In this document: one piece after another, positions 1,243 through 57,803 of the stretch
Layout of the letters: every line of letters starts with the position of its first letter
How positions within the stretch are numbered: the stretch's first letter is position 1
Assembly: GCA_037137535.1 (NCBI GenBank)
Contig: JBAXKC010000005.1
Coordinates: forward strand, 1-64,000
Direction: 5' to 3'
Length of the DNA stretch: 64,000 nucleotides
Origin: a bacterium
GTDB taxonomy: Bacteria; Cyanobacteriota; Vampirovibrionia; Gastranaerophilales; JBAXKC01
The notes under the pieces: generated by a model
What the model saw: only the letters and a program-made list of their open reading frames with translations
Told to the model about the DNA's origin: nothing
Database searches by the model: none
Translations under genes and position numbers: made by a program

Positions 1243-2808
1243 ATGTTGGATATTCAAAGAAATAATTTTAATGTAATAACAAATAATAAAACTAAGCCAA
1301 TAATTAGCAAAAGTAATAATGTAAATACAATAAATTCTTCATACAAGAGTTCATTAGTTCCTTTAAACACCCTCAAAGCATATAACATGTCTGTCTTTAA
1401 AGGAGCCGTTGTTAAGAATGATAAGCAAGTGGAAGAAACAGAAAAAGCTTTAAATCATATTATTGCAGATAATTTTTTTTATTGTCAGGATGGTAAAATT
1501 CCGCATGCAAGCCTGATGGAATTAGTAATGAAAGGAATTGAACCAAAAATTCAAGTAACTCCTGTAAATACCTATGAATTAACAGAACAACTCCCATATA
1601 AAGGTATTTACTTTAACTTCTATGACAAGGTAATAGAAGAAATAGAAAAAAAAATCGAAACAGGTCATAAGTTCGGTTCGGTTTGTATTTCAACAGTAGG
1701 CTGTGAATTAAGTTTCGAAGAGTTTGGAAAATTTATTGGTATAGACGAAATCAACAATGAAAATAGAGGTGTTTTAAAATACAAAGATAAAATACTTGAA
1801 AAATTAAAGCAATCTCACGAATTATACCTTAATGAAGGTGTTCAAAATAAAATTAACAACATTGAAAATACTGCAATAAAAGAACTCTTCAATGAATTAA
1901 TAGATATTGAGGAAGTGAAAAAGAATGGTTATTTATATGATAGATTATTGGAAAATTTAGATAATAATCAAGAATATCAAAAATTAAATGAAATAAGATT
2001 AAAATCAAGAATTTTTGAAAATATACAAAAATTTAACGAATTATCAAAAAAAGTACCTGTGTATTTTGCGGCAGGCAATAGTGGACCTGATTACTTTGAC
2101 TTATATTCTCTATCTAATGTTATTTCTATGGGTGTATTAGATAATTCAGGGCAAGAAGCGGCTTATTCTGCTTCTAATGACTTAATTTCCGAATTTGATT
2201 CAGTAAATATTAGTGTTTATACCTGTATGAATAAAGACGGAAGCATAGGGCTATCAAATAGCAAAAACAACACGCCAATATTATCTATACCTGAACATTC
2301 TCGATTAACAAAGAACATAAATGCTGAATATAGCAGTAAGTTTTATGGTAAATCTCCAACTTCTCATATTAGTAGTGCTGAAACTATTAATATATTAAAA
2401 AATATTTGTTCAAACAATAAACGAGATTTATATACAAATCTTATAGATTCTGATTTTTTTGATAAACATCCTGAAATTAACGAAAAATTAATTAATATAA
2501 GCGACTACATGGCACTTGAACATAAAAACATTGATGAAATTGATTCTAATGCTAAATATGTTTTATGCATTGATGTTGCAAAAGATTCTGTAGTTAAAAC
2601 AAAAAGGATGAGACAAACAATTTTGATGGGACAAGCTGGTAAGGAGTTGCGTAAATTTATCTTTTTAGGAGTTGATAAAGAAAATAAACTTTATTTTCTT
2701 CCTAACAGCAAATGTATAGAAAACATTGAGGGCGGAACTTCTTTCGTTGGGCCAAAACGTGCTGCCATAAAAGCAAAAGAAATATTGAATAAAGACCATA
2801 TCATTTGA
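1243..2808 (+). CDS. Divergent S8 (subtilisin-like) serine peptidase
   Basis: Ordered motifs IIADN (Asp), PHASLM (His), FAAGNSG (oxyanion Asn), GGTSFVGP (Ser); no classical signal peptide. Confidence 0.65.
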   Translation: MLDIQRNNFNVITNNKTKPIISKSNNVNTINSSYKSSLVPLNTLKAYNMSVFKGAVVKNDKQVEETEKALNHIIADNFFYCQDGKIPHASLMELVMKGIEPKIQVTPVNTYELTEQLPYKGIYFNFYDKVIEEIEKKIETGHKFGSVCISTVGCELSFEEFGKFIGIDEINNENRGVLKYKDKILEKLKQSHELYLNEGVQNKINNIENTAIKELFNELIDIEEVKKNGYLYDRLLENLDNNQEYQKLNEIRLKSRIFENIQKFNELSKKVPVYFAAGNSGPDYFDLYSLSNVISMGVLDNSGQEAAYSASNDLISEFDSVNISVYTCMNKDGSIGLSNSKNNTPILSIPEHSRLTKNINAEYSSKFYGKSPTSHISSAETINILKNICSNNKRDLYTNLIDSDFFDKHPEINEKLINISDYMALEHKNIDEIDSNAKYVLCIDVAKDSVVKTKRMRQTILMGQAGKELRKFIFLGVDKENKLYFLPNSKCIENIEGGTSFVGPKRAAIKAKEILNKDHII

Positions 2809-10400: not shown

Positions 10401-12021
10401 AACTGATTATGGTGGTAAAGAGGAAAAGCAACTTATTGAAGATACTGGATTTACTACTCAGTCTAATTATCGTTATTTTTATGGAACTCCTGCTTTATAT
10501 GCAGGTGGTAAACATGAAAATGAAGGTCCAACAATAGGTAATCTTAAAGCGAAATTTGATAATCCTAGCGATACTGGATATCCTGGTTTCTTACACTCTG
10601 GACCTCAAGATAATGTCAACTTCTCTCATGTATTCCAAAGTAACCATGATGCATCAAGAGTTTTAACAAAATTAGTGTTTAATTCTATAGTTGATCCTGA
10701 TGATAAATCAGACTATAAAGATAAATTAACAGGTGATCAAGAACACGATAACATTATGAAAATGAGAAATCAGATTTGTCGCTCTTTTGATGATGTTATT
10801 AAGACAAGTAAAGTGTTAAATCATTCAGAAGACTTTATAGCTCTAAATGATAATGAGAAAAAATTACTTAAAGATTCTATTGTTAAAATTGCTAATGAAT
10901 ATTCTGGTTATGACAAAGATGATATTGTTGTAGAAAGAGGAACAGAACAAGAAAAAATAAATAAAGTTGCAATGCAAAATAATTTTGCTTCAAGAGGAAT
11001 TGGTCATAACTTTGATGACATTATGAAAAAGCTAAAAACTGAAAACCCTGACCTTTATAAAAAAATAGAACCAAAACTTTACGAGTTAAAAAACGAAGTT
11101 AGTCAAAACTTCCTTGCTCCTGCTCTTAGTAAATATTTGACAATGCTTCCTTTAGTTGTTGCTTTACCTGGTTCCCCTACAATGTATCAAGGTGATGAAC
11201 TTGGTGAATTAGGTTTAGAATCTCAAGGTAAAAATATGTACCTATCAAATAGAAATCCTATTCCTTGGGATAAAATGAATGGTGACAATAAAGTCAACTT
11301 TATTGCTGATTTCCAAAGAAAAGTTCAAGATATTTATTCACTTAGACAAAAACCTGAATTATCTCCATTAGTTAATGGTTCAACTATTCCAATGAAGTAT
11401 GATGGTGATAATAATGATAATCAGAATAAACTTGGGTTTTCTCTGAATGTTTTATATAGATATAATCAAGAGCGAGATGTTATTGCTGTATTAAACAGAA
11501 ATGGACTAGGTGCAAAAAGAAGTGAATCTGAAGTTAAATCTTATAAAGTTGAAGGTGGATTAGTTCTGAATGATGAAAAGAATGATGCATTTAGAGGCTG
11601 GGGCACTTCTTATGAAAAAAAATCTAACTATGTAGGACTAACAAATGATACAACTTATATTCCGATTATCATAGACAAAGATGGCAATCAAATCAGTTAT
11701 AATAAAAAAGATATTCAAGACAATATTACAAACAAAAAGATTGCTAATCTTCCTGAAGGTATAACTTTAACATCATCAGATGCTGAAATTGATAGGGTTA
11801 TCAATAATATGAAATTCAAAACAGTAAAAGAAGGAAATACATATAAACTTGTTCCTGCAAACGGTAATAAAGACTTCAGCGTTGATGGTTCAGCAATGTA
11901 CTTCTACAGAGAGAATACTTTCCAAGAAGAAGCTGACAAAAAAGAAAAAAACAAGATAAGTTTCACAGGTAAATATGGTTCATTAAAACCAGGAATGAAA
12001 AATGTAAACATTAGCGGATAG
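7495..12021 (+). CDS. Very large GH13 (alpha-amylase family) enzyme with long insertions
   Basis: MYHLMPDNF, GGTLKGISEKLDYLKDFGV, SNHGYW, catalytic WRIDAAKD / IGEV / SNHD, LPGSPTMYQGDE, NRNPIPW. Confidence 0.88.
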   Translation: MVDIQQNRLKLNLNGEMKLNQKRGIENKQKPDNVAFTGHQLKINDKGNKEFHFYLPVASDKKENAKLVVKLAEELANGQYKIIKDVDSKELTKDGGLKSWAVDVKETFGKEEKSANNNKLRLLYKFEVDNNEVLDKTLSTNVDGQDFNVATLHTRAVIETPHSMYHLMPDNFNPKFATYTKANAEKVNAGSGLYIRNSNGTFLKVADENVANLKGKDTQFYVRNESNPKIDNKENYIDYAVRQHYFNKFGGTLKGISEKLDYLKDFGVSRILSTPVFGQDQISNHGYWTTNPYQITQTVGTHNSFMDINKQLYTKGMAWVADGAFVNEGWEGIHINNITKWGDKSPFFHWFETFDFPMHPLKAGLLPENDEAYKNCAIKVINSPIDIKLNSKGEYEDKKGEANKSYDPTKPTYIQLLDRRFATKEQMQSNEPIRKYDNMAPVNPATGEAIDPNEVKTWKDGVQPVLMEVPASEVKEKFTKEDGLVSILRSVLDLIPGDIGTLIFGKPKVTQPSLEKLKQWQDAHLEIQQADKSGGTTLWVGNKDIHKLRFMLPNDKTAELSKKVGLDTLNKSTAQVQDYILQVGKYWTDEVDKTITQYTADKIGEKLSNDADYKAAEAIQTPDKKAEAKAKATLKVIKSMADDKTLPAKLNTQLNEAMLVNFFKDEYNLKLPKAENITDGLMSYPLDAIEFPREICGILSTPFIKKLANDHDETSKSRYQISTNPELMKTRSPIYKKMDKVYSEDMKNRTLKILNQLPKETLDKLIDPKTKDIKDTDEAKMAFRIIAGDISKYITVKALTNHKLGFDEKNPDKGIDLTHDGSKFLSADIDAQKPVDNPYKGLHDDFYKYTKLITTTPESEADSLVDALKTGINNDSRFGDSQDFAKYLEAKLKNVMDKDVLPLAKLCVDRSESGLEWRIDAAKDVADMDSKIEGKSKLEDLAVGTAKFWKKFNETVRDINPRAYTIGEVTDYGGKEEKQLIEDTGFTTQSNYRYFYGTPALYAGGKHENEGPTIGNLKAKFDNPSDTGYPGFLHSGPQDNVNFSHVFQSNHDASRVLTKLVFNSIVDPDDKSDYKDKLTGDQEHDNIMKMRNQICRSFDDVIKTSKVLNHSEDFIALNDNEKKLLKDSIVKIANEYSGYDKDDIVVERGTEQEKINKVAMQNNFASRGIGHNFDDIMKKLKTENPDLYKKIEPKLYELKNEVSQNFLAPALSKYLTMLPLVVALPGSPTMYQGDELGELGLESQGKNMYLSNRNPIPWDKMNGDNKVNFIADFQRKVQDIYSLRQKPELSPLVNGSTIPMKYDGDNNDNQNKLGFSLNVLYRYNQERDVIAVLNRNGLGAKRSESEVKSYKVEGGLVLNDEKNDAFRGWGTSYEKKSNYVGLTNDTTYIPIIIDKDGNQISYNKKDIQDNITNKKIANLPEGITLTSSDAEIDRVINNMKFKTVKEGNTYKLVPANGNKDFSVDGSAMYFYRENTFQEEADKKEKNKISFTGKYGSLKPGMKNVNISG

Positions 12022-12118: not shown

Positions 12119-13876
12119 ATGAGCAGAAATTATAAGAAAAATATATTAAATAAACATAAGTTTAATATCATAAATCATCATTTTGAATTTAATGAATTAC
12201 AGCCCGATATTACTCATTATGAAGATTATAAAACGGCATTATTTGCGGTAAATAAAGTTCTTGATATAAAAGTCCCAGCAAAACGCTTAGATAAATATAT
12301 TTTATATAAGTTTGCAATGGAATGCTCCGTTGCGTTATCAAATCCTCTTATTAATTTAGTTATTAATTCCGAGAAAAGCTTTTTAAATCTTAGAAAAATA
12401 CAGGATAATAAGACTTATGCTGATGCAATTCTTAAAAAAGAGAAAAAATGTGACCTTAATAGAGTAAATAACTTTAAAATACTATATAAAAAGTTTAAAA
12501 ATGAGCAAACAGAAGAAACTTTTCGAGAAGTTGAGAGTTTAATTGAGGAATATTTTACTTTTCCTGAAGAGGATAAATCGGAAATATTTGATTTTAATAT
12601 AAATCTTTCTAGTATTGATTTCAGTTATTATAATAAGGATTATCAAAGAACAGCCGAATATATTCATAACACATGGAAAAAATTAGCTAAGCAAACAGCA
12701 AAAACTTCTTATAGTTCGCTTATTCCGTTGCCAAAACCTTTTATTGTCCCTGGGGGTAGGTTTAGAGAGATTTATTATTGGGATAGCTTTTATACAATTA
12801 TAGGTTTGCTGATTTCAAAGCTCGATTATATGGCAAAAAATATGGTTGATAACTTTTTGTATCTGGTGGAATATTTGGGCTTTATCCCCAACAGTAACCG
12901 AGTTTATCATCTAAGTCGCTCTCAACCACCGTATTTAGCGGAAATGATTGAAACTATCCGCCCTAAATGCTCAAAAAAATGGCTAAAAAGAGCTTTTAAC
13001 TTAGCAAAAAAAGAATATTTTTATTATTGGATGAATCCACAGACTAATTACCTCGAAGGGTATGGGCTTAATAGGTATTTTGATCCTGTAAATCAAGCCA
13101 GACCTGAAAGTTATGGTTCTGATAATGTAAATAGTTTTATTGGCTATGACTATTATTCTCATGAACGAAGTGAATGCGAGTCAGGATGGGATTTTACACG
13201 AAGATTTCATGATAGGGCTCATGATTTTATTCCTGTTGATTTGAATTGTTTGTTATATCGTTATGAAAAACTTTTTGAAAAATGGTCATTGTTATTCGGT
13301 AATTTTGATGAGGCCAAATATTGGAAAAATAAAGCAATTCAGCGTAAATCTAATATTAATAAATATCTTTGGAATGAAAGCGAAGGGCTTTATTTTGATT
13401 ATGATCTTATAAAACAAAAGCATTCGGATTTTAAATCATCAGCAGGTTTTATGCCCTTAAAAATGAAAGTTGCAGGAAAATTGCAAGCTGAAAAAGTTAG
13501 AAAAAATATAGTCGAAAAATTTGAAACTGATAATGGTGTTGTATCTTCCTATGGTATTTATGAGCAATCTTCTTACTGCAAAGAACCCTCTGAATACCAA
13601 TGGGATAGCCCTAATGGTTGGGCTCCTATTCAATTTATTACTGTTTATGGGCTTTTAAATTATGGTTATGAAGAGGATGCTAAAAGAATTGCTAAAAAAT
13701 GGCTTGATTTTAATACAAGAATTTTTCTGACAACCGGAAGTATGTTTGAAAAATACAACGTAATACAAGGAAGTGCAAAGGCTGAAACAAGCTATCCTCA
13801 ACAAACAGGTTTTGGTTGGACAAATGGAGTTTATCTTGATTTTTTATCAAATTTCATAGATAAAGCTGATAAATAA
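12119..13876 (+). CDS. Alpha,alpha-trehalase (GH37)
   Basis: PGGRFREIYYWDS, SRSQPP, RPESY, CESGWDF, QWDSPNGWAP, FEKY, GFGWTNG; no signal peptide. Confidence 0.93.
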   Translation: MSRNYKKNILNKHKFNIINHHFEFNELQPDITHYEDYKTALFAVNKVLDIKVPAKRLDKYILYKFAMECSVALSNPLINLVINSEKSFLNLRKIQDNKTYADAILKKEKKCDLNRVNNFKILYKKFKNEQTEETFREVESLIEEYFTFPEEDKSEIFDFNINLSSIDFSYYNKDYQRTAEYIHNTWKKLAKQTAKTSYSSLIPLPKPFIVPGGRFREIYYWDSFYTIIGLLISKLDYMAKNMVDNFLYLVEYLGFIPNSNRVYHLSRSQPPYLAEMIETIRPKCSKKWLKRAFNLAKKEYFYYWMNPQTNYLEGYGLNRYFDPVNQARPESYGSDNVNSFIGYDYYSHERSECESGWDFTRRFHDRAHDFIPVDLNCLLYRYEKLFEKWSLLFGNFDEAKYWKNKAIQRKSNINKYLWNESEGLYFDYDLIKQKHSDFKSSAGFMPLKMKVAGKLQAEKVRKNIVEKFETDNGVVSSYGIYEQSSYCKEPSEYQWDSPNGWAPIQFITVYGLLNYGYEEDAKRIAKKWLDFNTRIFLTTGSMFEKYNVIQGSAKAETSYPQQTGFGWTNGVYLDFLSNFIDKADK

Positions 13877-40429: not shown

Positions 40430-40714
40430 ATGATGAGTGACAATCAAAATAAAGTCATTTCACTCGCTGGTGCAAGAGAAAAAGATAAAGAAAAGCAATC
40501 AGATAAAAGTAATGAAAACAAAGAACCTCAGGTTCATTGTTCATTTTGTGGACGACCAAATTTTCAGGTTCTAAAAATGATAAAAGGTCCAGGGGTTAAT
40601 ATTTGCTCTGAGTGTGTAATGATTTGTATTCAGTTTTTAATTCTTGAAGATAGAGTTTCCTCTCCGGAAGTACAAAGGGTTTTAGACCAGTTTTGGCAAG
40701 GGTTTAGAAAATAA
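40430..40714 (+). CDS. Stand-alone ClpX-type C4 zinc-finger protein
   Basis: CSFCGR...MIKGPGVNICSECV; no AAA+ domain. Confidence 0.85.
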   Translation: MMSDNQNKVISLAGAREKDKEKQSDKSNENKEPQVHCSFCGRPNFQVLKMIKGPGVNICSECVMICIQFLILEDRVSSPEVQRVLDQFWQGFRK

Positions 40715-42875: not shown

Positions 42876-43218
42876 CAATATTGAAACAAAAATCATCAGA
42901 ACTCAGGATGAAAATGGCGAAGTTCATAACTTTGAGCTTGTTGATGTTGTAGAAGTAGACGGAAATGAGTATGGTTTATTAGTTTACGTTGATGAAGATG
43001 AAACTGCTGAAACTGAAAAATCAGAAGGTTGTGGATGCAGCAACGAAGAGTGTGGTTGTGAAGAAGAAGAAGAAATTATCATTATGAAATTAAATAAAAG
43101 TGGTGAGTCTTATTCATTCGAAACAATCGAAGACGATGATGAATTCAGCAAAGTTGTTGAATATCTTGAAACAGAATGTGCTGATGATGACGAAGAAGAT
43201 GAAGAAGACGCAGAATAA
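42862..43218 (+). CDS. DUF1292-like acidic protein
   Basis: DENGEVHNFE, EYGLL, IEDDDEF..V; follows yqgF as in Firmicutes; Cys-containing insert GCGCSNEECGC. Confidence 0.8.
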   Translation: MEDLNNIETKIIRTQDENGEVHNFELVDVVEVDGNEYGLLVYVDEDETAETEKSEGCGCSNEECGCEEEEEIIIMKLNKSGESYSFETIEDDDEFSKVVEYLETECADDDEEDEEDAE

Positions 43219-43234
43219 GTTTCTTTAATCCAAT

Positions 43235-43276
43235 AAATCCCTCCTGAGTTTTAATGATGCAGGAGGGATTTGTTTG
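43235..43276 (+). terminator. Intrinsic terminator
   Basis: AAATCCCTCCTG...CAGGAGGGATTT. Confidence 0.75.
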
Positions 43277-43340
43277 TAAATGCAATTATTCATTTTATAA
43301 ATGTGTTAGTATTAATTAGCAATATTAAATTAGTTATGAG

Positions 43341-43757
43341 GTGTGTCTTTTGACAGTAATTTTAGAATATAGAGAAATTCTTTCAACAGGCATAAAAAAA
43401 ATTGATGACCAACATAAAAAACTATATCAGCTGATAAATGATTTATTTACAGCGTGCGTTAATGGTTATGATAAAGAAATGATTTCTACTATTCTTTCCG
43501 ATCTTGCCGAGTATATTGACGTTCATTTTAAAGATGAAGAAGATATAATGCAGTCTGTGGGCTACTCTGATTTTTTAATTCATAAATCGGAACATGATAA
43601 ATTTTATAGTCTTGTTGTAGGGATTTTGAAAGAGTATGAATTAACAGGTGTAACTGATAATTTAATAAATGATACAAAGAAACTTTTAGTAGACTGGCTT
43701 TTAAGTCATTTAAATCATTTTGATAAAAAGTTGGCAATTTTCATCAAATCTCAGTAA
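43341..43757 (+). CDS. Bacteriohemerythrin
   Basis: TGIKKIDDQH, HFKDEE, HKSEH, WLLSHLNHFD. Confidence 0.92.
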   Translation: MCLLTVILEYREILSTGIKKIDDQHKKLYQLINDLFTACVNGYDKEMISTILSDLAEYIDVHFKDEEDIMQSVGYSDFLIHKSEHDKFYSLVVGILKEYELTGVTDNLINDTKKLLVDWLLSHLNHFDKKLAIFIKSQ

Positions 43758-43823
43758 TTATGTTAAGAAATAATTCTAAAGATAAAGTATTGTTAATATT
43801 TTGCTCAAAAACAACAAATTCAT

Positions 43824-43851
43824 AGAAGTTTTTTTTAAAAGCTGCCGATAC
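43824..43851 (+). promoter_or_regulatory. Candidate sigma-28-type promoter of the three-gene operon
   Basis: AGAAG, 15 bp, GCCGATAC. Confidence 0.5.
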
Positions 43852-44097
43852 AAATGGTAGCTTTTTAGTTTTAGAAGTTGAGAGTTTGTTTTAAGAGAGA
43901 AGTTTAGCTTATGGGAAAAAATTGTTTTTTCAATTCATGTTTCATATTTGAAAATATGCTAAATAGCATGTATTTAAGTGCTTTTGGGCATGTAAACAAT
44001 TGTAAAAAAAAGTATAAATATGAGAGTTTTTTTAACATGTTTTTAATTTATATGACTTTTTATTATTACGATAGAATTTGGGCTGAGGTCATAATTA

Positions 44098-45411
44098 ATG
44101 GTTAGCAAAATAGATAACTCAAAATTGTTTGAAAAATTTGCTTTGAAGCCACAGCAACAGCAAGCTCCTGCTCCTGTGACACAGCAGGCTGAAGTTGTTC
44201 CTGTTCAGGTTCAAAAGGAAATGGAAGGGGTTCAAGCAAAGACTCACGAGCCAAAGCAAGATGAACTTAACATCGGGCATGCATCGGATCACATGGTTTC
44301 TAATGATGCTCTTACAAAAATGAAAGTCCAAGTCGAAAAGACATCAAAGCTACCTGAATACGCTATTAGGGGAATGAAAGGCGATCAGGATGCTAATTTC
44401 TATGAGTTTTTAGAATTAGGTAAAGTTCCTTATTTTCTTGGTGGTGCTGTTTTAACTGCATGTTATGCTGCCGGTGGTAAGGGGGCTGCTCCATTTGTAA
44501 CAAGAATGGGAGCCGGTGCTGCATTTTTCTATACAGCTGCAATGTTAGGAAAGAATGCTATTGCTCTTCCTGTTCAGTTATTAAGAGGTATTGATCTTAA
44601 TCATCCTTACAGAGATATTGTAGATTGTAGAGCAGTAGATGCTCAAGGTACATCTCCGAAAAAGAAAGAATATCACAAAGTATTTGAAAGTATCGACTTT
44701 ACAAGATGGGATCTTCTTGAAAATCATGAAAAAGGAGATGTTAAAAACAACCCAAGGCTTATTAACGCTAAATATGACCGTATCGCTAAGAAAATGGGCA
44801 TAAAAGAAAAAGACCTTAATGACTCAGATAGCACATTAAGAGCTTATATCAAGAAAACACTTGTCATGAGTAAAGCTGCTCAATATATGAGTATAGCTTT
44901 ATTTGCACCACTAGCTATTGGTGTAGCTAATGTTCGTGAAATGGAATCACTTGGTCATAATATGTTTGGAGATATTGCTAAACATCTTGCAAAGCCTAAG
45001 GCTGACGCTACTATTGCCTCAACAACAAAGGATGTGTTCAGTATTATAAAATCTGCTACAACTGATGTTATTGGTAGATCCTTTAAATCACTATGGACAG
45101 GTGAGGGTAATACGCATACTATAAAGGGTGTTAAAAATACAATAGGAAGCGTGAAAACATCTGACCTCTTTAAGCAAATGACAGGTGGAGAGTTCTTCCA
45201 ATCATTAAATGGATTGCTTAAGAAACATGGCGGAAAAGCATTAATCCTTGCTCCGTTAGTAACATCAGTAGCCGCAAACGCATGGATTTACTTCCACACA
45301 AATGCAGGCAAGAAAAAAGTATTACCTGCCGCAGAGTTTGCTATCGATAAGCAAAGACTTGCTGAACAATCAGCTCAAGGGGACAACACTCAACAAGTTA
45401 AGCCACAGTAG
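44098..45411 (+). CDS. Hypothetical Gly/Ala-rich membrane-associated protein, paralog of the next gene
   Basis: 437 aa; GAGG RBS; Q/P-rich N-terminus; several moderately hydrophobic helices. Confidence 0.75.
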   Translation: MVSKIDNSKLFEKFALKPQQQQAPAPVTQQAEVVPVQVQKEMEGVQAKTHEPKQDELNIGHASDHMVSNDALTKMKVQVEKTSKLPEYAIRGMKGDQDANFYEFLELGKVPYFLGGAVLTACYAAGGKGAAPFVTRMGAGAAFFYTAAMLGKNAIALPVQLLRGIDLNHPYRDIVDCRAVDAQGTSPKKKEYHKVFESIDFTRWDLLENHEKGDVKNNPRLINAKYDRIAKKMGIKEKDLNDSDSTLRAYIKKTLVMSKAAQYMSIALFAPLAIGVANVREMESLGHNMFGDIAKHLAKPKADATIASTTKDVFSIIKSATTDVIGRSFKSLWTGEGNTHTIKGVKNTIGSVKTSDLFKQMTGGEFFQSLNGLLKKHGGKALILAPLVTSVAANAWIYFHTNAGKKKVLPAAEFAIDKQRLAEQSAQGDNTQQVKPQ

Positions 45412-45428
45412 GGTTAGGGGATATTAAA

Positions 45429-48158
45429 ATGGTTAACATTAATCGAAATCTCACATTTACAAATGCAGACTTGATTAAAAAACAGTTTCAGATGAAGCCG
45501 TCTAATCAGCAAGCTCAACCTGCTCCTGTGGTTGAAAATAGTCCGCAAAAAGCTAATCAGGAATTGATTGCAGATACATTAAAATTAAGAAACGTTGAGC
45601 CTGACAAACCAAAAGGTAAAACATTTAACAGAGGTCTTCTTCAGTGGCCACAAGAAATATATGAAACCAACGTTAAAGGTGCAAAAGTTCTTTGGAAAGC
45701 TATGGCTAAAGGCGAAGGCAACGATAAAGATATCGGAAGCCTTAACGATTTAGCGTTAGGTTTGGGCAGTTTAGGTATTGCTGCTGCTTTAGCACTTAGA
45801 CCTAAGGCTTCCCCTGCCGAAAGAGCTATGGAATTTGCCGGTTTTGGAACATGGTTTGCAGCGCAAGCTATTTGGCCAAAAACTATTCTCGCAGGACCTG
45901 TTAAATTTTTTACCGGTGTAGATATTAATAAAACTTATCAGCATAGTGAAGGCAAAATTAATAGAACGCTTACTGATCCTCAATATATTCCTTGGGATCA
46001 CTATACTCAAAAAGAATATGATGAAGTTGGTAAAAAATGTCATATTCCTGAAAATATCAAAGATAGAAATAAACATGTTCAAAATAAAATCAGACAGGTT
46101 GGCGTTCAGTCAAATACTTTATGGATGCTGACAGCAGGTTTTTCAACTCCGTTAATTTCCAGTTTATTTGCTGATAGATTAAGACCGGCTGTTGCAGGTG
46201 GTCTTGAGATGGTAAATGAAACAAAAAATTCTATGAAGTTATTCGGATTCAAGAAAACACTTCACGATAGAATTGATAGAGCTCTTCAAAATCTTGAACA
46301 TAAGATGATTCCTAACGCTACAGGTAACGGATTAGGTTCTGTGGGTAGAGGTGTTCAAAACTTCTTCATTAGTGCTGATAATATGTTAGGAACTATTAAA
46401 AAGCCTATTTTATCCACAGTTCAACATCTTGTCGGCTATAAGCCTGAAGAAGCATTAAAAGGTTTTGATTCTAAAGCTGAATCTATTTCTAAGAAAACTG
46501 CTGAGCAAATGGAAAAATTACTTGAGTCTAATCCTAATAAAGAGAAAATGACAAGTGAATTAGCAAATATGTTTAAAGATTCTAGTGAATTAGGTTCATT
46601 TAGACATACTGACTTATTTAACAGTATTGTTAAAACTGTATCTTCTAAAATGGATGAAATTCCTGGAAAAGATGCGACTAAACAAGCAGAGCTTAAAAAA
46701 CAAATCGTTAGTGTTGTTTCATCGGCTAAGAAATTTGTTGAGATGGCAAAAGATGTTGAAGGCTATGCTAAAACAACACTCGGTAATTACGCTGATACAA
46801 CTATAGCTCACGCTTGGGATCAAGCTCCTAGAGAAATGATGGATGCTTTAAGACTTCCTAATGCTGTAAGAGTTAAATTACAAAGTGTTAACGGTCAAAC
46901 TCCTAATGGTATAAGTGCAGTTGCTCTTGAAATTTCTGATTATATTCATAAACTTCCTGCTGCTGAAAGAGAAGAAGTTAAAATTGCATTAGATAATGTT
47001 ATTCATAAGCACGATAGTAAGTTATCAGGAATGGCTGAGAGAGTAGGTGTTGTCTTTACTGAAGGAGGAGCTAAAGAGACTGAAAATGGTGTAATGCAAA
47101 AATTAAGAGCATACTCTAAAGACCTTAGCACTCAACTTTATGATAGTGATGATTTTAAAACAGCAAATATTTATATGGATAATCTGAGTAATATGGTCAG
47201 AGATCGTATTATGAATACAAAAAATTCCTTCCATAAAATGCCTGTGTTATTTGAAGCTCATACAAAAGAAGTTGAATTAATTGCTGAGTATAATAAAAAG
47301 AATCCGACTAAAGCTATTGATCTTAAAAATGGCGTGACTAATATAGTAATGGAATTGTCAAGTAAACCTAAGGAAGCACTTAACGATCATGAAAAAACAT
47401 TACTTGAGGGTCTAACTAAATCAATGAAGTTTAAGAGTACTTTTGATCCGCATAACTTAATGACAGTTGACAAAGGTGTAAGTTTAGATGAATTCTTAAA
47501 TAAATGCAGAGCGATTTATGGAAGTAATCCTGCAACAGAAGCTAAAGGCACTATAAATGAGATGTTAAATCAATTATTTGTGTCAATGTATAAAATTGAG
47601 GATACAGGTAAGGATCTCAGTAAATGGACAGAGGCAGCTCTTACTGATTTATTAAAAGGTGATAATCAATTAGCAAAACAATTAAAATCTGCAAGTGGTG
47701 ATGACCTTAAACATATGCTTGAGGCTAATGATCACCAGTTAGAAAAAACGATTAATTCTCATTTGGGTGAATTATTTAATCAAGCTAAGTCAACAATGAC
47801 AGAAAAAGGTTTAATATCACTTACTGAAGATTCAATTAAAGCTATATTTAATGAAACCTTTAATAAAGCGGGTATTGATGTTTCTCATTCGTTAAAAACA
47901 CAAGCATTTATTGAAGAAAAAGCTGATGCTCTTGCTCCAAAACTTAAATCAGCTGGAGCTTGGTTAGGTAAAGCTCTTGATAAATTTATCGCAGATGCAG
48001 CAGGTGAGACTGTACTTTACAGAGGTTGGTTGACAAAAGTCGGTAGTGCATTCGCTGTTCTTACAGGTGTAACATTAATCGCTTCATCAATGATGGGCAA
48101 GAAAAACAAATATAATCCGGGTGTCTATGAGGTAAGGGAGACCAAGAAATATGAATAA
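45429..48158 (+). CDS. Large hypothetical protein: hydrophobic N-terminal domain, long helical middle, C-terminal hydrophobic helix
   Basis: 909 aa; overlaps the start of the downstream GH13 gene; N-terminal domain similar to the 44098 protein. Confidence 0.75.
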   Translation: MVNINRNLTFTNADLIKKQFQMKPSNQQAQPAPVVENSPQKANQELIADTLKLRNVEPDKPKGKTFNRGLLQWPQEIYETNVKGAKVLWKAMAKGEGNDKDIGSLNDLALGLGSLGIAAALALRPKASPAERAMEFAGFGTWFAAQAIWPKTILAGPVKFFTGVDINKTYQHSEGKINRTLTDPQYIPWDHYTQKEYDEVGKKCHIPENIKDRNKHVQNKIRQVGVQSNTLWMLTAGFSTPLISSLFADRLRPAVAGGLEMVNETKNSMKLFGFKKTLHDRIDRALQNLEHKMIPNATGNGLGSVGRGVQNFFISADNMLGTIKKPILSTVQHLVGYKPEEALKGFDSKAESISKKTAEQMEKLLESNPNKEKMTSELANMFKDSSELGSFRHTDLFNSIVKTVSSKMDEIPGKDATKQAELKKQIVSVVSSAKKFVEMAKDVEGYAKTTLGNYADTTIAHAWDQAPREMMDALRLPNAVRVKLQSVNGQTPNGISAVALEISDYIHKLPAAEREEVKIALDNVIHKHDSKLSGMAERVGVVFTEGGAKETENGVMQKLRAYSKDLSTQLYDSDDFKTANIYMDNLSNMVRDRIMNTKNSFHKMPVLFEAHTKEVELIAEYNKKNPTKAIDLKNGVTNIVMELSSKPKEALNDHEKTLLEGLTKSMKFKSTFDPHNLMTVDKGVSLDEFLNKCRAIYGSNPATEAKGTINEMLNQLFVSMYKIEDTGKDLSKWTEAALTDLLKGDNQLAKQLKSASGDDLKHMLEANDHQLEKTINSHLGELFNQAKSTMTEKGLISLTEDSIKAIFNETFNKAGIDVSHSLKTQAFIEEKADALAPKLKSAGAWLGKALDKFIADAAGETVLYRGWLTKVGSAFAVLTGVTLIASSMMGKKNKYNPGVYEVRETKKYE

Positions 48159-50118
48159 CGTTCAAAATAACAATAATCAGTTTATTGTAAAACTTCCTTT
48201 GAATAAAACTAATCAGCCGTTACCTCAACAGCCTGTGTATGTTGCTCCTGCGGCTACACATGTGAATCAGCAGCCAAATCAGGTAGTTTATGCAAATAAT
48301 ATTCCTAATATTTTCTTTAAATCACCACAACCTCAAAAAGCTGTTGTTGCTCCACAAGTAGCTCCACAGCAACAAGCTAATACTCAATCAATGTCGTCAG
48401 ATTGGGTTTCAAGTTGGATAAAAGTTAAAATGCCTGCAGCGGCTAATGCTTCAACAGCAGTAGCAAAGGCTGCTCCGGTTCAGAAAATATCTGATGTGAA
48501 ACTTGATCCGAATTTTCATTGGAAAAACGACCTTAGGCAGTTATTCCACGAAAATAAAGCTTGTATTATGGCAGTGTTAATGAATACATTCAATGCTAAA
48601 GATAAAGATGGTGACAGATTAATTCAACCGTCTAAAGGTGAAGAATTCGGCACTTGGTATAATGGTATCGAGCGTCTTGATGAGATGAAAGCATTAGGTA
48701 TTAATACATTACACATTCTTCCTCCAAACCCACCCGGTGCAAAAGGTGCTATGGGGAACAACGGTTCAAGATATGCTGTTGATGATTATACTAAATTAGA
48801 TCCAATGCTTGATGATCCAAAATGTCCTCTTGGCGTGGAAGATGAAGCAAAATTATTCATTCAGGAAGCTCATAAACGTGGTATCAGAGTAATGTTTGAC
48901 CTTGCAAGCTGTTTCTCAATCGATCAGTTTGAAAAATCTGCTGCTAATCAAGATAAAAATCCTGCAACTCCAAAAGTAGCTGTAAATCCTGACGGTACAC
49001 CGGCTATTCCTCAAGGTTGGGAAGACATTAGAATGATGGATCCTTGGGAAGATAAAGATAAGAGAATTTTACACAAAGGCTTGATGGATTATCATAAAAA
49101 ATTCATTGATTTGGCACAAAGAATTGGTGTTGATGGTATCAGAGCTGACGTTGCAAGAGCGAAACCTGTTGAATTCTGGAATGAATTAATTGCATATTCC
49201 AGAAGTAAAGATCCAAACTTCTGCTGGTTAGCTGAAAGCTATTGTTATGAAGATGCCTCACCAATGCAAAACGTACCTGCTGATAGACCTGAAGAGCTGT
49301 TAAAAGTTGGTTTCGATTCATACTATGGTCAAGATCACTTATTCCCATTATGGAAAAACAGTAAAGATTTCCATGACAATATGCTTCTAAACCTTGATCT
49401 TTCACATAAAGTAGGGCCTAATAAGTCTGTAATCGGTTCAATGCATACCCATGATGATAGAAGTCCTATGTCAAACGGTGGCGCTCCATACTGTTGTTTA
49501 ACAGCAGGCGCTCAACTTACATTACCGATGACTAATCCATACTTTACAATCGGTTTTGAATCAGGTGACAGATATTTATATCCATACGATGGCAAGCCTG
49601 TTCAAGGTTGGGCAAGAACAGACTCTAAAACCTATGTAACTCATAGTGAGTTTATCGACATCTTTAATACGTCAGATAAACCGCATGGCGATAATCCTGA
49701 AATCGGCCAATATATGACTGATATGACAAAAGTTAGAAAGCAATATGAAGATGTTATTACCAAAGGTTCTTACATTCCGTTAAAAACTACTAATAAAGAA
49801 GATTTAATTATCGGTTATGCAAGACACTATAACGGTAAAACCTTACTTGCTATTGCTAACAAAGATGTAAATGCTGTTCAGCAAGGAAAAGTGAAAGTAC
49901 CAACTTTAAAAGAAGGACAAGTTCTTAAAGATCTTTCACCTGCTTATGGTGCACCAAGTAATTATGTCGCTAAAAACGGAGAAGTTGACGTAGAACTTGG
50001 ACCAGCTAGATTCCATCTTTTTGAAATTGATACACCTGAAATAGAAAAAGCTGCTGATGGCGTATATTCTCAAAACCTTGATTTATCTATGTATGAACAA
50101 ACTCCAATAAAAGATTAA
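48151..50118 (+). CDS. GH13 alpha-amylase family enzyme with Q/P/N-rich N-terminal extension
   Basis: RLDEMKALGINTLHILP, GSRYAV.DY, AHKRGIRVMFD, catalytic GIRADVA / LAES / HTHDD. Confidence 0.88.
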   Translation: MNNVQNNNNQFIVKLPLNKTNQPLPQQPVYVAPAATHVNQQPNQVVYANNIPNIFFKSPQPQKAVVAPQVAPQQQANTQSMSSDWVSSWIKVKMPAAANASTAVAKAAPVQKISDVKLDPNFHWKNDLRQLFHENKACIMAVLMNTFNAKDKDGDRLIQPSKGEEFGTWYNGIERLDEMKALGINTLHILPPNPPGAKGAMGNNGSRYAVDDYTKLDPMLDDPKCPLGVEDEAKLFIQEAHKRGIRVMFDLASCFSIDQFEKSAANQDKNPATPKVAVNPDGTPAIPQGWEDIRMMDPWEDKDKRILHKGLMDYHKKFIDLAQRIGVDGIRADVARAKPVEFWNELIAYSRSKDPNFCWLAESYCYEDASPMQNVPADRPEELLKVGFDSYYGQDHLFPLWKNSKDFHDNMLLNLDLSHKVGPNKSVIGSMHTHDDRSPMSNGGAPYCCLTAGAQLTLPMTNPYFTIGFESGDRYLYPYDGKPVQGWARTDSKTYVTHSEFIDIFNTSDKPHGDNPEIGQYMTDMTKVRKQYEDVITKGSYIPLKTTNKEDLIIGYARHYNGKTLLAIANKDVNAVQQGKVKVPTLKEGQVLKDLSPAYGAPSNYVAKNGEVDVELGPARFHLFEIDTPEIEKAADGVYSQNLDLSMYEQTPIKD

Positions 50119-50145
50119 TCTAGTAAAATAACTAAATTAATTATA

Positions 50146-50180
50146 AAAATCCCTTACATTATTTAAGATGTAAGGGATTT
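50146..50180 (+). terminator. Intrinsic terminator
   Basis: AAAATCCCTTACAT...ATGTAAGGGATTTT. Confidence 0.8.
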
Positions 50181-50471
50181 TAGCTATAAAGACGGGCATT
50201 TAAACCCTAATGCCAGCTTGCCGTTTTATGACAAAGTCCGACTAGAATAAAAACGCCCTATATTTAATAACCCTGCATAAGGTAATTCCATAAAAAAGAT
50301 AAATCGCAACAGTATCGTAACATTGACTTCACGTCTTGTATTAACTTATCTTTTCTTATCCTTTATAAATATATCATTATGTTATATAAACAACATCGGT
50401 TGTTCGTTCTACAACAATTGTCTATAATTACAAATATATTACCATAATATTGTTGTACAACAATTGGCTTA

Positions 50472-52394
50472 TTATGTTAATTTAGCTATTTTTTCCGCTA
50501 GCTGAGCAATTTCCTCACAGTTATCAGCAGAAACATTTATAAGTTTAGTTATTTCAGTCATTTCTTTACCAGCTTCATTCATGTTAGTTTCAAGTTTGTC
50601 TGAAATTTTATTCATTAACTCTACTTGCTTCTGAATTATGGATTCACTAGATTTAGTTGAATCTACAACTTCTTTAGATTGTTCAGAAAGTTTTCTTACT
50701 TCATCCGCTACAATTGCAAAGCCACGTCCATGATCACCCGCACGAGCTGCTTCAATAGAAGCATTAAGTGAGAGTAAATTTGTCATACCTGCTATATTTA
50801 CAATTTCTTTTGATGCTTCAATAAATTCATTAACGCTTTGTTCAACACTATAAATACTATTTTTTAAATCACTTGAGGTTTTAATAAGATTAATTATTTG
50901 TTCTTTTATTTGTTCCGTATTTGCACTATTTTCTTTATTTGAATTAGCGACATTTAATACTTTTTCTATAATCTTATCCACATTTGTTTTAAGAATAGTT
51001 GATGATTCCTCTTTTTCTGCATTAATTTCCTGTAATTCTGCTGTCATTTGTTGTAGTTTACAATTTTGTGCATTTATCATGTCATGTTCTATTTTAAGCT
51101 CTTTTTTATTATAAAATATGCAGTTTTTTAAATGATTAGTATTATTAAATATAGAAAGGGCCATATTTTTACAATTGCCATATCCGCAAGCATTACAGTT
51201 TATGTTTTTATCTTTTTCAGTATATTTATGCAGTTTTATAAATACTTCATTCAATTCGCTTTGATTTGGAATTAATATTTTTACATCAGAAGATTTATTT
51301 TTGTATTTTCTAATAAAATCATTCAAGTCTATTTCTTTGTTAAACATATCAAATAAAGGATAGGTATTTTTATTAAATATATTCTTTGAGCTTTTTTCTT
51401 TGATTTTTTGTTTTTTTGCTAAATTCATTTTATTATCAAGATCATCTATGTGACGATCTTTACATGTCCCTGTCCCCAAATTGCAGCCGAAAGAACAGTT
51501 TAAAATATCTACAATAAGAGGCAAATTTTTATTTTCTTTTACTCTTTTATTATATGAATCAAGGTAACTATATGCATGCTCATTACCTTCTACCTGTCTT
51601 ACCCAGGCATCAGGTATATGGAATTCTACGTTTTCTCTAAGACCACCTGGTCTTGAGAAGGTTAAGCCTAATCCACATCCGATATCATCAAAGTCTGTTT
51701 CTTCATAGCTATTTAGGTTTATATTATTTCTTTTTAAATAATTCTCTATTTTTTTATAGGTAATATTATATGAAATATAACCATTAGTATTGGGATCATT
51801 AAATTCATCTGTTTTTCCAAGACAAGGTGATAAAAAGGCTATGTTATCATTTATTTTTTTATAATTTTTCATGTAAATAGCAGTACAGAGAGCAGGACTA
51901 TGAACAGGTGAGGTTTTTTCGATTAATTCAGGTTTGTATTTTTCTATATAATTAACAATTGCAGGACAAGGCTGTGCAATGACAGAGTCTAAATTTTTAG
52001 TAGTAATCGCTTTGATATAAGCCCATGTACATAGATCAGCACCAAATGACACATCATATATTAAATTTATACCTTTGCTTTTAAAAAATGAAAAAAGTTT
52101 TTTGTAATTGTCAAAATTCAACCTTGCTGCAGGAGCTGCAACAATGGATAATTTTTTACCTTTTTTTAAATCTTCAAAAAATAATTCTGTATCATCATTA
52201 TATCTACGAGCATTATGATCACATTCCTCTATACAATGTCCACAATTTATACATTTATAAGGATCAACTTTAATTTTATTATCGTTGTTTTCGTCTAAAT
52301 AGGCTATATTGGCGTATATTGCAGGACAACCATTTATGCATTTATTGCAACCGACACAATTCTCTTCAATTGTGTAAACAATATTATTCTTCAT
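50472..52394 (-). CDS. Soluble chemoreceptor: 2x[4Fe-4S], [FeFe]-hydrogenase-like domain, FeS domain and MCP signalling domain
   Basis: CVGCNKC...CP, CINCGHC...[65 protein letters not shown]. Confidence 0.9.
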
Positions 52395-52606
52395 TATTTT
52401 GACCCAGCTTCCTTTTTATTTTATTTTAAATCCAACATACATAATCGATATTTTTTCTTTAATTATAATTAGAAAACAATATAGTAATAATAAAAAAATT
52501 TATAATCTATCCTCTTGTCATACTAACTAATGAAAGATTTAATTTTATGAAACATAATTAGTTTAACTTTTATACGGTGGTTATGATAATTTATGAGGTA
52601 TTTACC

Positions 52607-52912
52607 ATGAATGTTTCAAGAATTGATGGTTTTAAAGAAGAAATGCATAATGCTACTGAATCAATGAAAACTAGAATATCAGAAGTTCAAGGTAAAGTTG
52701 AAGAGAATATTAATAAAGCTATGGTTGTTACTGCTGACAGTTTAGAAAATACGGCAAAAAAATTTAACGGTACTGCTGAAGTTTTACGAGAAAAAAATGC
52801 TCAAACTATTAAAAATGATGTATCTGAGCTTGTTAAAAAATATCCTGCTTATACTTTTGTTGGTGCTATGGTTATAGGCTTTATTTTTGGCAAAATGCTT
52901 TCAAAACGATAG
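52607..52912 (+). CDS. DUF883/YqjD-ElaB-like tail-anchored small protein
   Basis: Helical body plus VKKYP...GAMVIGFIFG tail; ATG at 52607 after GAGG preferred over the track start 52577. Confidence 0.65.
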   Translation: MNVSRIDGFKEEMHNATESMKTRISEVQGKVEENINKAMVVTADSLENTAKKFNGTAEVLREKNAQTIKNDVSELVKKYPAYTFVGAMVIGFIFGKMLSKR

Positions 52913-52925
52913 GAGGATTGTAGCT

Positions 52926-53267
52926 TTGTTTAAAAATGAACCAAATTTTAAAGAGAAAAATAATATTCCGCATCTAATTAAAGAAATAGTTAATGAATTT
53001 TTAAATTTGACATTAAAGCACATAAGTTTAATAAAATTTGATATAAAACATGATATTAGAGTTGCAATAAGTCATATATTATTAGGTCTTTTATGCATTT
53101 TTATGGGATTTTGCGGACTTATTTTTCTTGGGTTTTTCTTTATTCTGATGCTGACTAAAGCTTTACCGCTATGGTTGGCTACTTTGTTGGTAGCGTTATT
53201 GTATTTTGTCATTTCTATAATTTTGCTGGCTTTTGCAATGAATAAAATTAACATTGAAAAATTTTAG
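52926..53267 (+). CDS. YqjE/phage-holin-3_6-like two-TM membrane protein
   Basis: AGGAGG (52911-52916) then in-frame TTG at 52926; ISLIKFDIK, two TMs, LPLWLATL. Confidence 0.65.
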   Translation: MFKNEPNFKEKNNIPHLIKEIVNEFLNLTLKHISLIKFDIKHDIRVAISHILLGLLCIFMGFCGLIFLGFFFILMLTKALPLWLATLLVALLYFVISIILLAFAMNKINIEKF

Positions 53268-53290
53268 CATAATATATTTGGAGATTTAAA

Positions 53291-53596
53291 ATGGATAAAA
53301 GACATGAACTTCTAAACGATATTGAGCGTTCGCAGGAGCGCATTCAAGATGATATCTCTCATATTGGAGATATTATTCATAATAAAACTAATATAGCGGA
53401 TGCAATAAAAAAACATCCGTTTCAATCTCTTGCTATTGGAACAGCAGCAGGTTTTGCATTGGCATTTATTTCTACCCCTATTGGAAGAGTAGTTATTAAA
53501 TCACTTATAGGTTCTGCTGTTGCTACTGCCGGTGCTCATTATTCCAAAAAGGGAATAGATTATTTACAATTATTAAAAGAGAAAAAAGTTGTTTAA
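53291..53596 (+). CDS. DUF3618/YqjK-like small protein
   Basis: DIERSQERI..DI, IKKHPFQSLAIG.AAGF. Confidence 0.6.
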   Translation: MDKRHELLNDIERSQERIQDDISHIGDIIHNKTNIADAIKKHPFQSLAIGTAAGFALAFISTPIGRVVIKSLIGSAVATAGAHYSKKGIDYLQLLKEKKVV

Positions 53597-57146: not shown

Positions 57147-57803
57147 ATGATTAATTCAAATTATAATTCACAGGTTGCATTTGCAGGAAAAGAGAAAACA
57201 GAGAAAAAATCTGCATATCCTGAAAAACAATCTGATAATATAAAAAGAGTTGCCGTTAATACTGCTGTTACTGTAGGGACAGGGGCAGCGTTGGGTGCCG
57301 GTGCTGCTGTAGGTATAAATGAGTTTGCTGTTTCTAAAGTAACTAATGGTATTAAAGAAGTTACTGATACATTTAATAGTAAGTTTCTAAATTCAGATGT
57401 TGCAGAAAAAGTGATTTGTGAAGACTCTCATCCTATTGTTCAACTGGGAGAAAAAATTTCTGATGGATTGAGAGCAGTAAAAAACATATTTGGTTTACCA
57501 AAAAATAATGAATTTAGAACAGGCTTTAATGATGCTCTTGAATCTGCTGCATTTGTCGGAGAAAACAGATATTACTTAAACGGTAATATCGATGAAATTG
57601 GACAGAATGTATTACCTTTTATAAATAATTTCAGAGATGAAATGGTTAATCATATTAGAAGTTGCACAAAAAAGACTATTCTTCCTTTTGCTGCTATTGG
57701 TGCAGCAACTGCTTTAATTCTAGGAACAGCCGGAAGTTTGACTATTCATGGAGTTAAGGATATTTTTAGAACTGATAAAAAAGAAGAAACTTCTAAAGCA
57801 TAG
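57147..57803 (+). CDS. Hypothetical protein with two Gly/Ala-rich hydrophobic segments
   Basis: AAGGAGG RBS; GTGAALGAGAAVG and AAIGAATALILGTAG; N-terminal QVAFAG. Confidence 0.75.
   Translation: MINSNYNSQVAFAGKEKTEKKSAYPEKQSDNIKRVAVNTAVTVGTGAALGAGAAVGINEFAVSKVTNGIKEVTDTFNSKFLNSDVAEKVICEDSHPIVQLGEKISDGLRAVKNIFGLPKNNEFRTGFNDALESAAFVGENRYYLNGNIDEIGQNVLPFINNFRDEMVNHIRSCTKKTILPFAAIGAATALILGTAGSLTIHGVKDIFRTDKKEETSKA

Follow-up and report, generated by a model that had tools for sequence, protein, structure and literature searches.

A lineage-specific three-gene module of Vampirovibrionia encodes two paralogues of an undescribed protein family and a divergent GH13 enzyme

The sister lineage of Cyanobacteria that lacks photosynthesis, Vampirovibrionia (Melainabacteria), is common in the guts of animals, and almost none of it has been cultured. 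Alpha-glucan metabolism has a central place in gut fermenters, and in the cyanobacterial line it is the ancestral pathway for storage. Precedent for a protein of the glycoside hydrolase family 13 (GH13) fold as the fixed partner of a membrane protein is found in the SLC3/SLC7 heteromeric amino-acid transporters, where it forms the heavy chain. Here, I describe a trio of plus-strand genes in a 64,000-nt stretch of a Gastranaerophilales genome (GenBank assembly GCA_037137535.1, contig JBAXKC010000005.1, positions 1 to 64,000; hereafter, the window): gene A (44098-45411, 437 aa), a member of a protein family that has not been described, its paralogue gene B (45429-48158, 909 aa), and gene C (48151-50118, 655 aa), which encodes a divergent GH13. 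A listing of the open reading frames (ORFs) of the window returns all three with exactly these boundaries, A and B being 17 nt apart and B and C overlapping by 8 nt. An earlier note on this DNA had read the trio as a pair of membrane-type proteins that export, translocate or anchor a GH13 enzyme; the closest described systems with which the three products can be compared are GH13 enzymes of Thermotoga and other bacteria, the SLC3/SLC7 transporters, type III translocators and two-component pore formers, and a bacterial S-layer protein.

The three genes are a self-contained, co-translated and lineage-specific module of Vampirovibrionia. Of the 8000 candidates scored in a word-indexed search, 184 proved to be relatives of A, almost all of them bearing Melainabacteria or Gastranaerophilales names (the exceptions among the rows listed are 'bacterium' and 'Fusobacterium sp.'); a word search with B over its whole length returned only 3 proteins, and a joint profile of A and B matched 585 proteins at E <= 0.001 among 1.84 billion representatives. 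The best 150 of these 585 all have the length of an A (280-460 aa) or of a B (585-1224 aa); lengths are known for these 150 only, distant relatives being possible among the weaker 435. In contigs drawn from one genome per species, 298 loci encode a relative, and 80 of the 298 form the basis of the linkage counts given here. The titles of the 80 are Gastranaerophilales, Melainabacteria, Caenarcanum and 'Cyanobacteria bacterium UBA...', together with some evidently mislabelled bins, and the related loci come from gut, groundwater and cave genomes.

B starts at most 100 nt after the end of A in 73 of the 75 loci with at least 800 nt of room, the two misses being an uncalled start and a fragment, and C starts at most 200 nt after the end of B in 67 of 68 loci, so that the linkage to a GH13 first noticed in a single genome is found conserved among its relatives. 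In the sole locus in which C fails to follow B (L002, 11026-14921), B and C lie in pieces in different frames, which appear to be frameshifts or assembly errors, and the order A-B-C is intact; in a Caenarcanum locus (L006) C has moved to just upstream of A and is still adjacent. In 44 of 75 loci a single nucleotide separates A from B, and in 45 of 70 B overlaps C; the gene order and the tight or overlapping junctions hold across loci with 30-40% identity in A. Clustering of the ORFs of the 80 loci places A in 78 loci, B in 70 and C in 68, the next family occurring in 47. When 20 other ORFs of the window (18 flanking the trio, a large GH13 gene and a trehalase gene) were compared by tblastn with the 80 loci, none was conserved beside the trio, the only matches being those of the large GH13, in 7 loci.

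On sequence evidence, A is a true paralogue of the N-terminal ~240 residues of B, chance being excluded, because three comparisons agree. BLASTP aligns residues 7-272 of A with residues 12-242 of B (E 5e-6, 21% identity, 271 columns); a profile-profile alignment (hhalign) of 27 relatives of A with 26 N-terminal domains of B joins profile positions 61-275 of A to 43-222 of B over 178 columns (E 1e-12, probability 97.8%); and, run on every ORF of the window of at least 60 aa, the A profile matches only A and B, and the B profile only B and A. The aligned blocks from which the earlier note had deduced a collinear shared domain are all present in both alignments. In the window, the part of B that aligns with the core of A (residues 43-242, from hhalign and BLASTP) is encoded at 45555-46154. 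The residues common to both families look structural rather than catalytic, because they are mostly Gly and Pro, in addition to one Tyr and one Asp.

A consists of a variable N-terminus (residues 1-60), a conserved core (61-279) with three Gly/Ala-rich hydrophobic helices and a conserved 90-residue loop containing a beta hairpin, a variable helical insert (280-378), and a C-terminal helix (379-400; 45232-45297, plus strand) that is the most hydrophobic segment of the protein and is followed by a Lys-rich tail. In B, the middle (residues ~250-865) is long, all-helical and poorly conserved, and leads into a C-terminal hydrophobic helix (866-891; 48024-48101, plus strand) in which W867 and G890 are nearly invariant. 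As had been seen from the letters alone, each protein terminates in a hydrophobic helix and a GKK; in each, this helix is also the most hydrophobic one. The model of A made with AlphaFold2 (mean pLDDT 74.3, pTM 0.66) is all-helical bar one beta hairpin at residues 170-194, with long helices at 101-124, 128-163, 243-277 and 364-401; the best 10-residue blocks reach a pLDDT of 94 at residues 151-170 and 251-260 and of 91-94 at 381-400, corresponding to helix 2 with the loop that follows, to the beginning of helix 3 and to helix 4. The model of B is poor overall (pLDDT 59.7), its confident parts being the N-terminal domain (residues 60-270) and the last helix (850-887).

A and B are built alike. 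Behind an N-terminus that varies come an amphipathic lead-in, which is conserved, and two hydrophobic helices; a charged loop of 70-90 residues, also conserved, leads to a third hydrophobic helix, and a helical insert that varies separates this from the fourth, after which the protein closes with a short basic tail. The insert between helices 3 and 4 measures ~60-100 residues in A and 350-800 in B, whose orthologues are 579-1064 aa long. The models show A and B as one predicted shared fold, a compact bundle of four Gly/Ala-rich hydrophobic helices with a conserved charged loop. Elsewhere in the window, a 218-aa ORF without Pfam match (57147-57803, plus strand) is built in the same style, with an Asn-rich N-terminus, a Gly/Ala-rich hydrophobic helix at about residues 35-58, a C-terminal hydrophobic helix and a Lys-rich tail; the A and B profiles do not detect it as a homologue. 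On a contig of another genome that is too short to include B or C (L007, 1763-3658), an A-like protein of 631 aa (P0025) with two stretches matching the joint profile may be a longer or fused form of A.

A and B are an undescribed protein family with no described fold. Neither gave anything above noise against Pfam and NCBIfam, 36 further members of the family contained no real Pfam domain, and PADLOC and PHROGs returned 0 families each. A found no match among plasmids and phages by tblastn. Its model (pLDDT 74) had 0 Foldseek matches at E <= 0.001 in PDB and BFVD, and that of B (pLDDT 60, a low-confidence model) 0 at the same threshold in PDB. A joint profile of 13 A and 13 B domains matched no PDB sequence at E <= 10, and a full-length B profile matched only designed helical repeats, the best (E 0.0018) in the middle of B. 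In the ESM Atlas the family falls in Melainabacteria clusters only, without a Pfam family. These results bear out the failure of the earlier note to place the pair in any recognised family. Two identities were considered and dropped: MTP18, carried by 33% of the members of one ESM Atlas cluster (score 0.76), was treated as chance, and a phage holin or defence-system protein is left without a match in PHROGs, PADLOC, plasmids and phages, and BFVD. Pfam shows nothing resembling a carbohydrate-binding module in A or B, and it gives no flagellin match to go with a conceivable likeness of the N-termini to flagellar export substrates. No description of the module was found in the literature on Melainabacteria and Gastranaerophilales, searched without its supplements.

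Two kinds of helical protein invite comparison with A and B. Like type III translocator pairs and two-component pore formers of the ClyA/YaxAB type, A and B are helical, are encoded together, possess a helical hairpin of moderate hydrophobicity and a disordered N-terminus, and lack a Sec signal. Unlike them, they match no such fold or sequence, have no injectisome, chaperone or toxin in their context, and are present in nearly all the related loci, be they from gut, groundwater or cave, in the company of a metabolic enzyme. The analogy with these systems, which the earlier note had drawn, is thus not borne out by Foldseek, with 0 matches at E <= 0.001 for A and for B. The top row of the Foldseek list for B, at a non-significant E of 0.073, is the PS2 S-layer protein of Corynebacterium glutamicum (9hpn, 9gk2), which stands at E 1.1 in the list for A. 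PS2 is likewise all-helical and has a C-terminal hydrophobic anchor. It differs in having a signal peptide; TM-scores of 0.07-0.12 make the resemblance meaningless, and the sequences are not similar.

The third protein is easier to place. C matches PF00128 with 33 bits (cut-off 22) over residues 161-308 only and has no hydrophobic N-terminal segment, which agrees with its first description as a signal-less GH13; no NCBIfam equivalog cut-off is reached (best 48 bits against 875). It comprises a variable low-complexity N-terminal extension (residues 1-125) and a catalytic region (126-655), and among orthologues the first 60-135 residues are variable and the C-terminal tail is conserved. All 25 orthologues aligned keep D250, R331, D333, E362, H434 and D435; in the established GH13 scheme, D250 is the Asp of region I, R331 and D333 are the Arg and nucleophile of region II, E362 is the acid/base of region III, and H434-D435 is the His-Asp of region IV, with D435 as the transition-state Asp. 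In the window, the codons of these residues from D333 onwards lie at 49147-49455 on the plus strand (D333, 49147-49149; E362, 49234-49236; H434-D435, 49450-49455), and the region of D333, E362 and D435 aligns with 4gkl and 3dhu. On this conservation, C shows itself as a catalytically intact enzyme, predicted to be of cytoplasmic type.

A profile of C finds in PDB the Thermotoga amylase AmyB (4gkl, E 1.5e-24), the maltosyltransferase of Thermotoga maritima (1gju, 9.7e-24), an amylase of Lactobacillus plantarum (3dhu) and GlgE (7.9e-15); it aligns with the catalytic barrel of these enzymes, GlgE being represented by 3zss and 4u2y, at profile E values from 1.5e-24 to 3e-14. The nearest solved relatives are intracellular enzymes. 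C has in common with them the Asp/Glu/Asp set, as well as the Arg and the His that belong to the conserved regions, and differs in its low identity, its variable N-terminal extension with a conserved decapeptide, its conserved C-terminal tail, its placement in a clade of its own and its position beside A and B. It differs also in region I, where D250 is followed by Ser-Cys-Ala/Phe in place of the usual Asn-His. Its transferase relatives probably lack this Asn-His as well; its replacement in C is, from the aligned sequences, a departure at subfamily level that leaves membership of GH13 standing. Hydrolase and transferase are not separable by sequence here. Among the 120 best homologues listed, none falls below 47% identity to C, and the names given are of Melainabacteria only; by this measure C is a distinct GH13 clade. 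In three loci (L010, L014 and L044) the C orthologue carries an insertion of ~20-60 residues after a conserved Gly-Phe-Glu-Ser-Gly-Asp block; L010 and L014 have some of the longest B proteins (1032-1046 aa) and L044 a short one (645 aa), all of the same lineage and so not independent evidence.

Compared with the SLC3 heavy chain, C has no transmembrane helix (no hydrophobic segment in 67 of 67 orthologues) and has kept its catalytic residues, and A and B show no APC or LAT likeness to SLC7 in Pfam or Foldseek. A transporter of the SLC3/SLC7 type was rejected for the trio, C having no hydrophobic segment and A and B no Pfam transporter match.

The N-termini of all three proteins had been described as polar, rich in Gln, Pro and Asn, and free of a Sec signal. 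The latter holds, since an N-terminal hydrophobic segment, sought in the sequences of A, B and C, is absent; the former is true of this genome, whereas among orthologues the Q/P-rich stretches fall in variable linkers. Alignments of the first 140 residues of 53-55 sequences, mostly of the gut clade and with near-duplicates and miscalled starts removed, give a mean column identity that falls from 0.65 in the first ten columns to 0.16 in the linker of B, and from 0.55 to 0.29 and 0.17 in C; A follows the same pattern more weakly (0.49 to 0.36). A conserved decapeptide on a flexible linker could be a docking or targeting element. Far from the trio, a 521-aa ORF without Pfam match (1243-2808, plus strand) has a first dozen residues like those of B and of a large GH13 encoded at 7495, a likeness that could be due to AT-rich composition or to a shared element.

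As regards genomic company, the neighbours of the trio were examined in a gut clade (47 loci; 7 neighbours scanned with Pfam) and in 14 more divergent loci (55 flanking ORFs scanned). The same-strand genes upstream of the trio in the gut clade are always a KdsD-like gene (SIS and CBS domains), a HAD phosphatase, a PTPS and UppP/BacA (e.g. L018, 7176-9900), with PanD downstream; this envelope-related company of KdsD-like, HAD and UppP genes was not seen in the divergent loci scanned. In 5 of the 14 divergent loci (L002, L008, L012, L016 and L044) the trio adjoins a second large GH13 (1242-1449 aa) without signal, followed in L016 and L044 by a GPH-type sugar symporter; a GlgC-like gene lies near the trio in L006 and a GH57 gene in L019. 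According to a preprint, Melainabacteria have GlgC, GlgA and a GH57 GlgB (bioRxiv 10.1101/2021.06.18.448987). The gene content points to a tie between the trio and alpha-glucan metabolism, and an intracellular metabolism fits better than secretion because of the nearest solved relatives of C and the neighbours in divergent loci. The window has its own copy of the large GH13, well away from the trio (7495-12021, plus strand, 1508 aa), with no signal-like N-terminus and followed by a GH37 trehalase gene (12119-13876, plus strand). It resembles neopullulanases and cyclomaltodextrinases at residues ~220-360 only, its remaining ~1100 residues match nothing, and a test for a domain in common with A, B or C found none.

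The explanation favoured here, and held tentatively, is that A and B form a scaffold at the inner membrane that holds C, a cytoplasmic alpha-glucan enzyme. A and B would pair through their paralogous cores; the heteromer would sit at the cytoplasmic face of the inner membrane, or in it, held at least by the C-terminal helices; and it would keep the signal-less C at a membrane site, where C would trim or transfer alpha-1,4-glucan chains of glycogen or of imported malto-oligosaccharides, the long helical arm of B serving as a spacer or platform. For the first step, residues 60-405 of A and 55-270 of B, each with its own alignment, were submitted to complex prediction in three runs with three controls. 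The ipSAE was 0.54, 0.59 and 0.54 for A-B and 0.01, 0.00 and 0.00 for the controls; the contacts of the runs coincide to at least 68%, the pLDDT of the partner is at least 65, and the result was graded 'weak support'. The mark for pairing is reached by 116 of 157 solved complexes and by 2 of 215 mismatches, and at values of at most 0.60 by 18 of 157 and by both mismatches. The predicted A-B heteromer through paralogous cores has modest support because pairing between paralogues is likely beforehand.

Several observations weigh against this explanation. The A-B score falls in a band that is more often wrong than right unless pairing is likely beforehand, and C is linked to A and B by synteny and overlapping genes alone. 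Membrane association, too, is uncertain on the sequence features. The helices of A and B reach Kyte-Doolittle maxima of 1.2-1.7, and on a plain sum of Hessa-scale values over 19-residue windows, 42 of 77 orthologues of A and 48 of 70 of B lack any window at <=2 kcal/mol, the mark used; no more than 34 of the 77 A proteins and 9 of the 70 B proteins reach it with the C-terminal helix. Lys and Arg make up 15-29% of every loop of A and B. This holds for the tail and for the short loop that connects helices 1 and 2 (net ~+3), two parts that would lie on opposite faces in a four-pass topology; because both are Lys/Arg-rich, A and B would fail the positive-inside rule as classical four-pass proteins. 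The features fit proteins with a weakly hydrophobic core that would be tail-anchored, peripheral or unusually inserted. Thus, of the heteromeric membrane-inserting pair that the earlier note had envisaged, the heteromer gains weak backing (ipSAE 0.54), and insertion is left with marginal helices and Lys/Arg in all loops; 'membrane-type' suits the C-terminal helix, clearly hydrophobic in part of the family, and not a classical four-pass topology. As to the context, the conserved upstream neighbours in the gut clade are not glucan genes, of the 14 divergent loci scanned only some have glucan genes next to the trio, most of their other neighbours being unrelated housekeeping genes, and unrelated housekeeping genes also flank the trio in the window itself. 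Lastly, the decapeptide and variable linker of B and C would also fit a targeting signal.

This last point leads to the foremost rival, namely export or surface anchoring, in which A and B would insert in the membrane and deliver or display the signal-less GH13 outside, recognition being through an uncleaved N-terminal signal. The lack of a Sec-type N-terminus in all three proteins would suit it, as would the conserved first decapeptides of B and C, although the N-terminal conservation comes mostly from one gut clade. The marginal hydrophobicity of the helices is what one meets in proteins that are soluble before insertion; the envelope-related genes upstream in the gut clade would be fitting company; and the second large GH13, in the window and beside the trio elsewhere, is without signal peptide as well. 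On the other hand, no fold match (E <= 0.001) to a solved translocator, pore former or secretion component was obtained, and Pfam shows no secretion apparatus, chaperone or toxin gene beside the trio, be it among the 48 other ORFs of the window or the 7 gut-clade and 55 divergent neighbours, a FliO-like gene in the window being 24 kb away. Furthermore, the nearest solved relatives of C are intracellular, and the sugar symporter and the GlgC and GH57 neighbours in divergent loci suggest a substrate handled inside the cell. Export or anchoring, as the earlier note had it, finds no support here and is unlikely. A broader form of it, a Sec-independent system of Vampirovibrionia that would place signal-less alpha-glucan enzymes (C, perhaps the large GH13) in or beyond the envelope by recognition of the N-terminal peptide and insertion of the marginally hydrophobic four-helix core, is improbable.

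Somewhat less probable than simple export, and well below the membrane scaffold in likelihood, is that A and B are not membrane proteins at all and would act as soluble or peripheral helical scaffolds, for instance on a glucan granule or other cytoplasmic body, with the hydrophobic helices as protein core and C as the enzymatic partner. The marginal hydrophobicity of most orthologues and the Lys/Arg-rich segments on both sides of every hydrophobic helix are in line with this, and so are the four hydrophobic helices as the confident core of the A model and the likeness of the B middle to generic designed helical repeats only (best E 0.0018). The C-terminal helix and basic tail, conserved in both families, are by contrast anchor-like, nothing in A or B resembles a carbohydrate-binding module, and a bacterial scaffold of this kind on glycogen granules is not known to me, no search having been aimed at the point.

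A role in the synthesis and export of an alpha-glucan, with C a transglycosylase and A/B the conduit or anchor for a capsular or periplasmic glucan, is improbable. GlgE (7.9e-15) and the Thermotoga maltosyltransferase (1gju, 9.7e-24) are among the closest solved relatives of C, region I of C keeps the Asp without Asn-His, and envelope genes lie upstream in the gut clade; yet the best relative of C is an alpha-amylase (4gkl), sequence alone cannot tell the two activities apart, the scanned loci show neither a maltokinase nor a TreS nor a glycosyltransferase gene next to the trio, and the A/B fold matches no known polysaccharide exporter. Just as improbable is mere co-transcription of lineage-specific envelope or structural proteins (A/B) with an ordinary cytoplasmic amylase (C): the flanking genes do vary and the link comes from gene order alone, but order and tight junctions are kept at 30-40% identity in A, which is unusual for unrelated genes, and C stays adjacent even where it has moved (L006).

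Coming back to the window, A, B and C are one plus-strand unit between two terminator-like hairpins. The first (43837-43865, plus strand) consists of an 11-pair stem and a run of T behind it; it closes the hemerythrin-like gene that lies upstream (PF01814, 43341-43757, by Pfam) and forms the 5' boundary. An AT-rich intergenic leader (43866-44097, plus strand, read directly from the sequence) follows, in which a Shine-Dalgarno-like GAGG stands at 44085-44088, 9 nt ahead of the point where A begins. A promoter scan gave matches at chance level (29 found, 26.7 expected from shuffles), and an Rfam scan of 43000-51000 returned zero families. The second, a strong hairpin followed by T-rich sequence at ~50141-50189 (plus strand), is the likely terminator of the unit (dG -28.4 kcal/mol, z -5.47, 0 of 200 shuffles equally stable) and agrees, as do the 17-nt and overlapping junctions, with what had first been noted around 50146. 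Against a window GC of ~0.28-0.34, the stretch 44001-50000 is richer (0.33-0.38; flanks 0.28-0.30), which could be due to an Ala/Gly/Pro-rich composition or to codon choice.

Upstream of the unit, Pfam identifies a ClpX-type zinc-finger protein, a 576-aa protein without known family, RuvX, DUF1292 and the hemerythrin; the zinc-finger ORF (40430-40714, plus strand, 94 aa) contains little beyond the ClpX-type C4 zinc finger, and its stop overlaps the start of the 576-aa protein. Downstream, on the opposite strand (50472-52394), 4Fe-4S ferredoxin and Fe-only-hydrogenase large-subunit domains are fused to a methyl-accepting chemotaxis signalling domain; this hydrogenase-like chemoreceptor may be a redox or H2 sensor. 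Three small overlapping or adjacent plus-strand ORFs follow at 52577-53596, the middle one matching Holin-X (PF07332) and both outer ones having a hydrophobic C-terminal stretch.

To sum up, a widely kept module with two parts that belong to no described family or fold is an annotation gap for Vampirovibrionia. Were A and B to tether the enzyme, they would represent a new way of organising glycogen or maltodextrin turnover; were they to export it, a new secretion route. Under either reading, A and B merit definition as a family, and C merits placement as a GH13 clade of its own.

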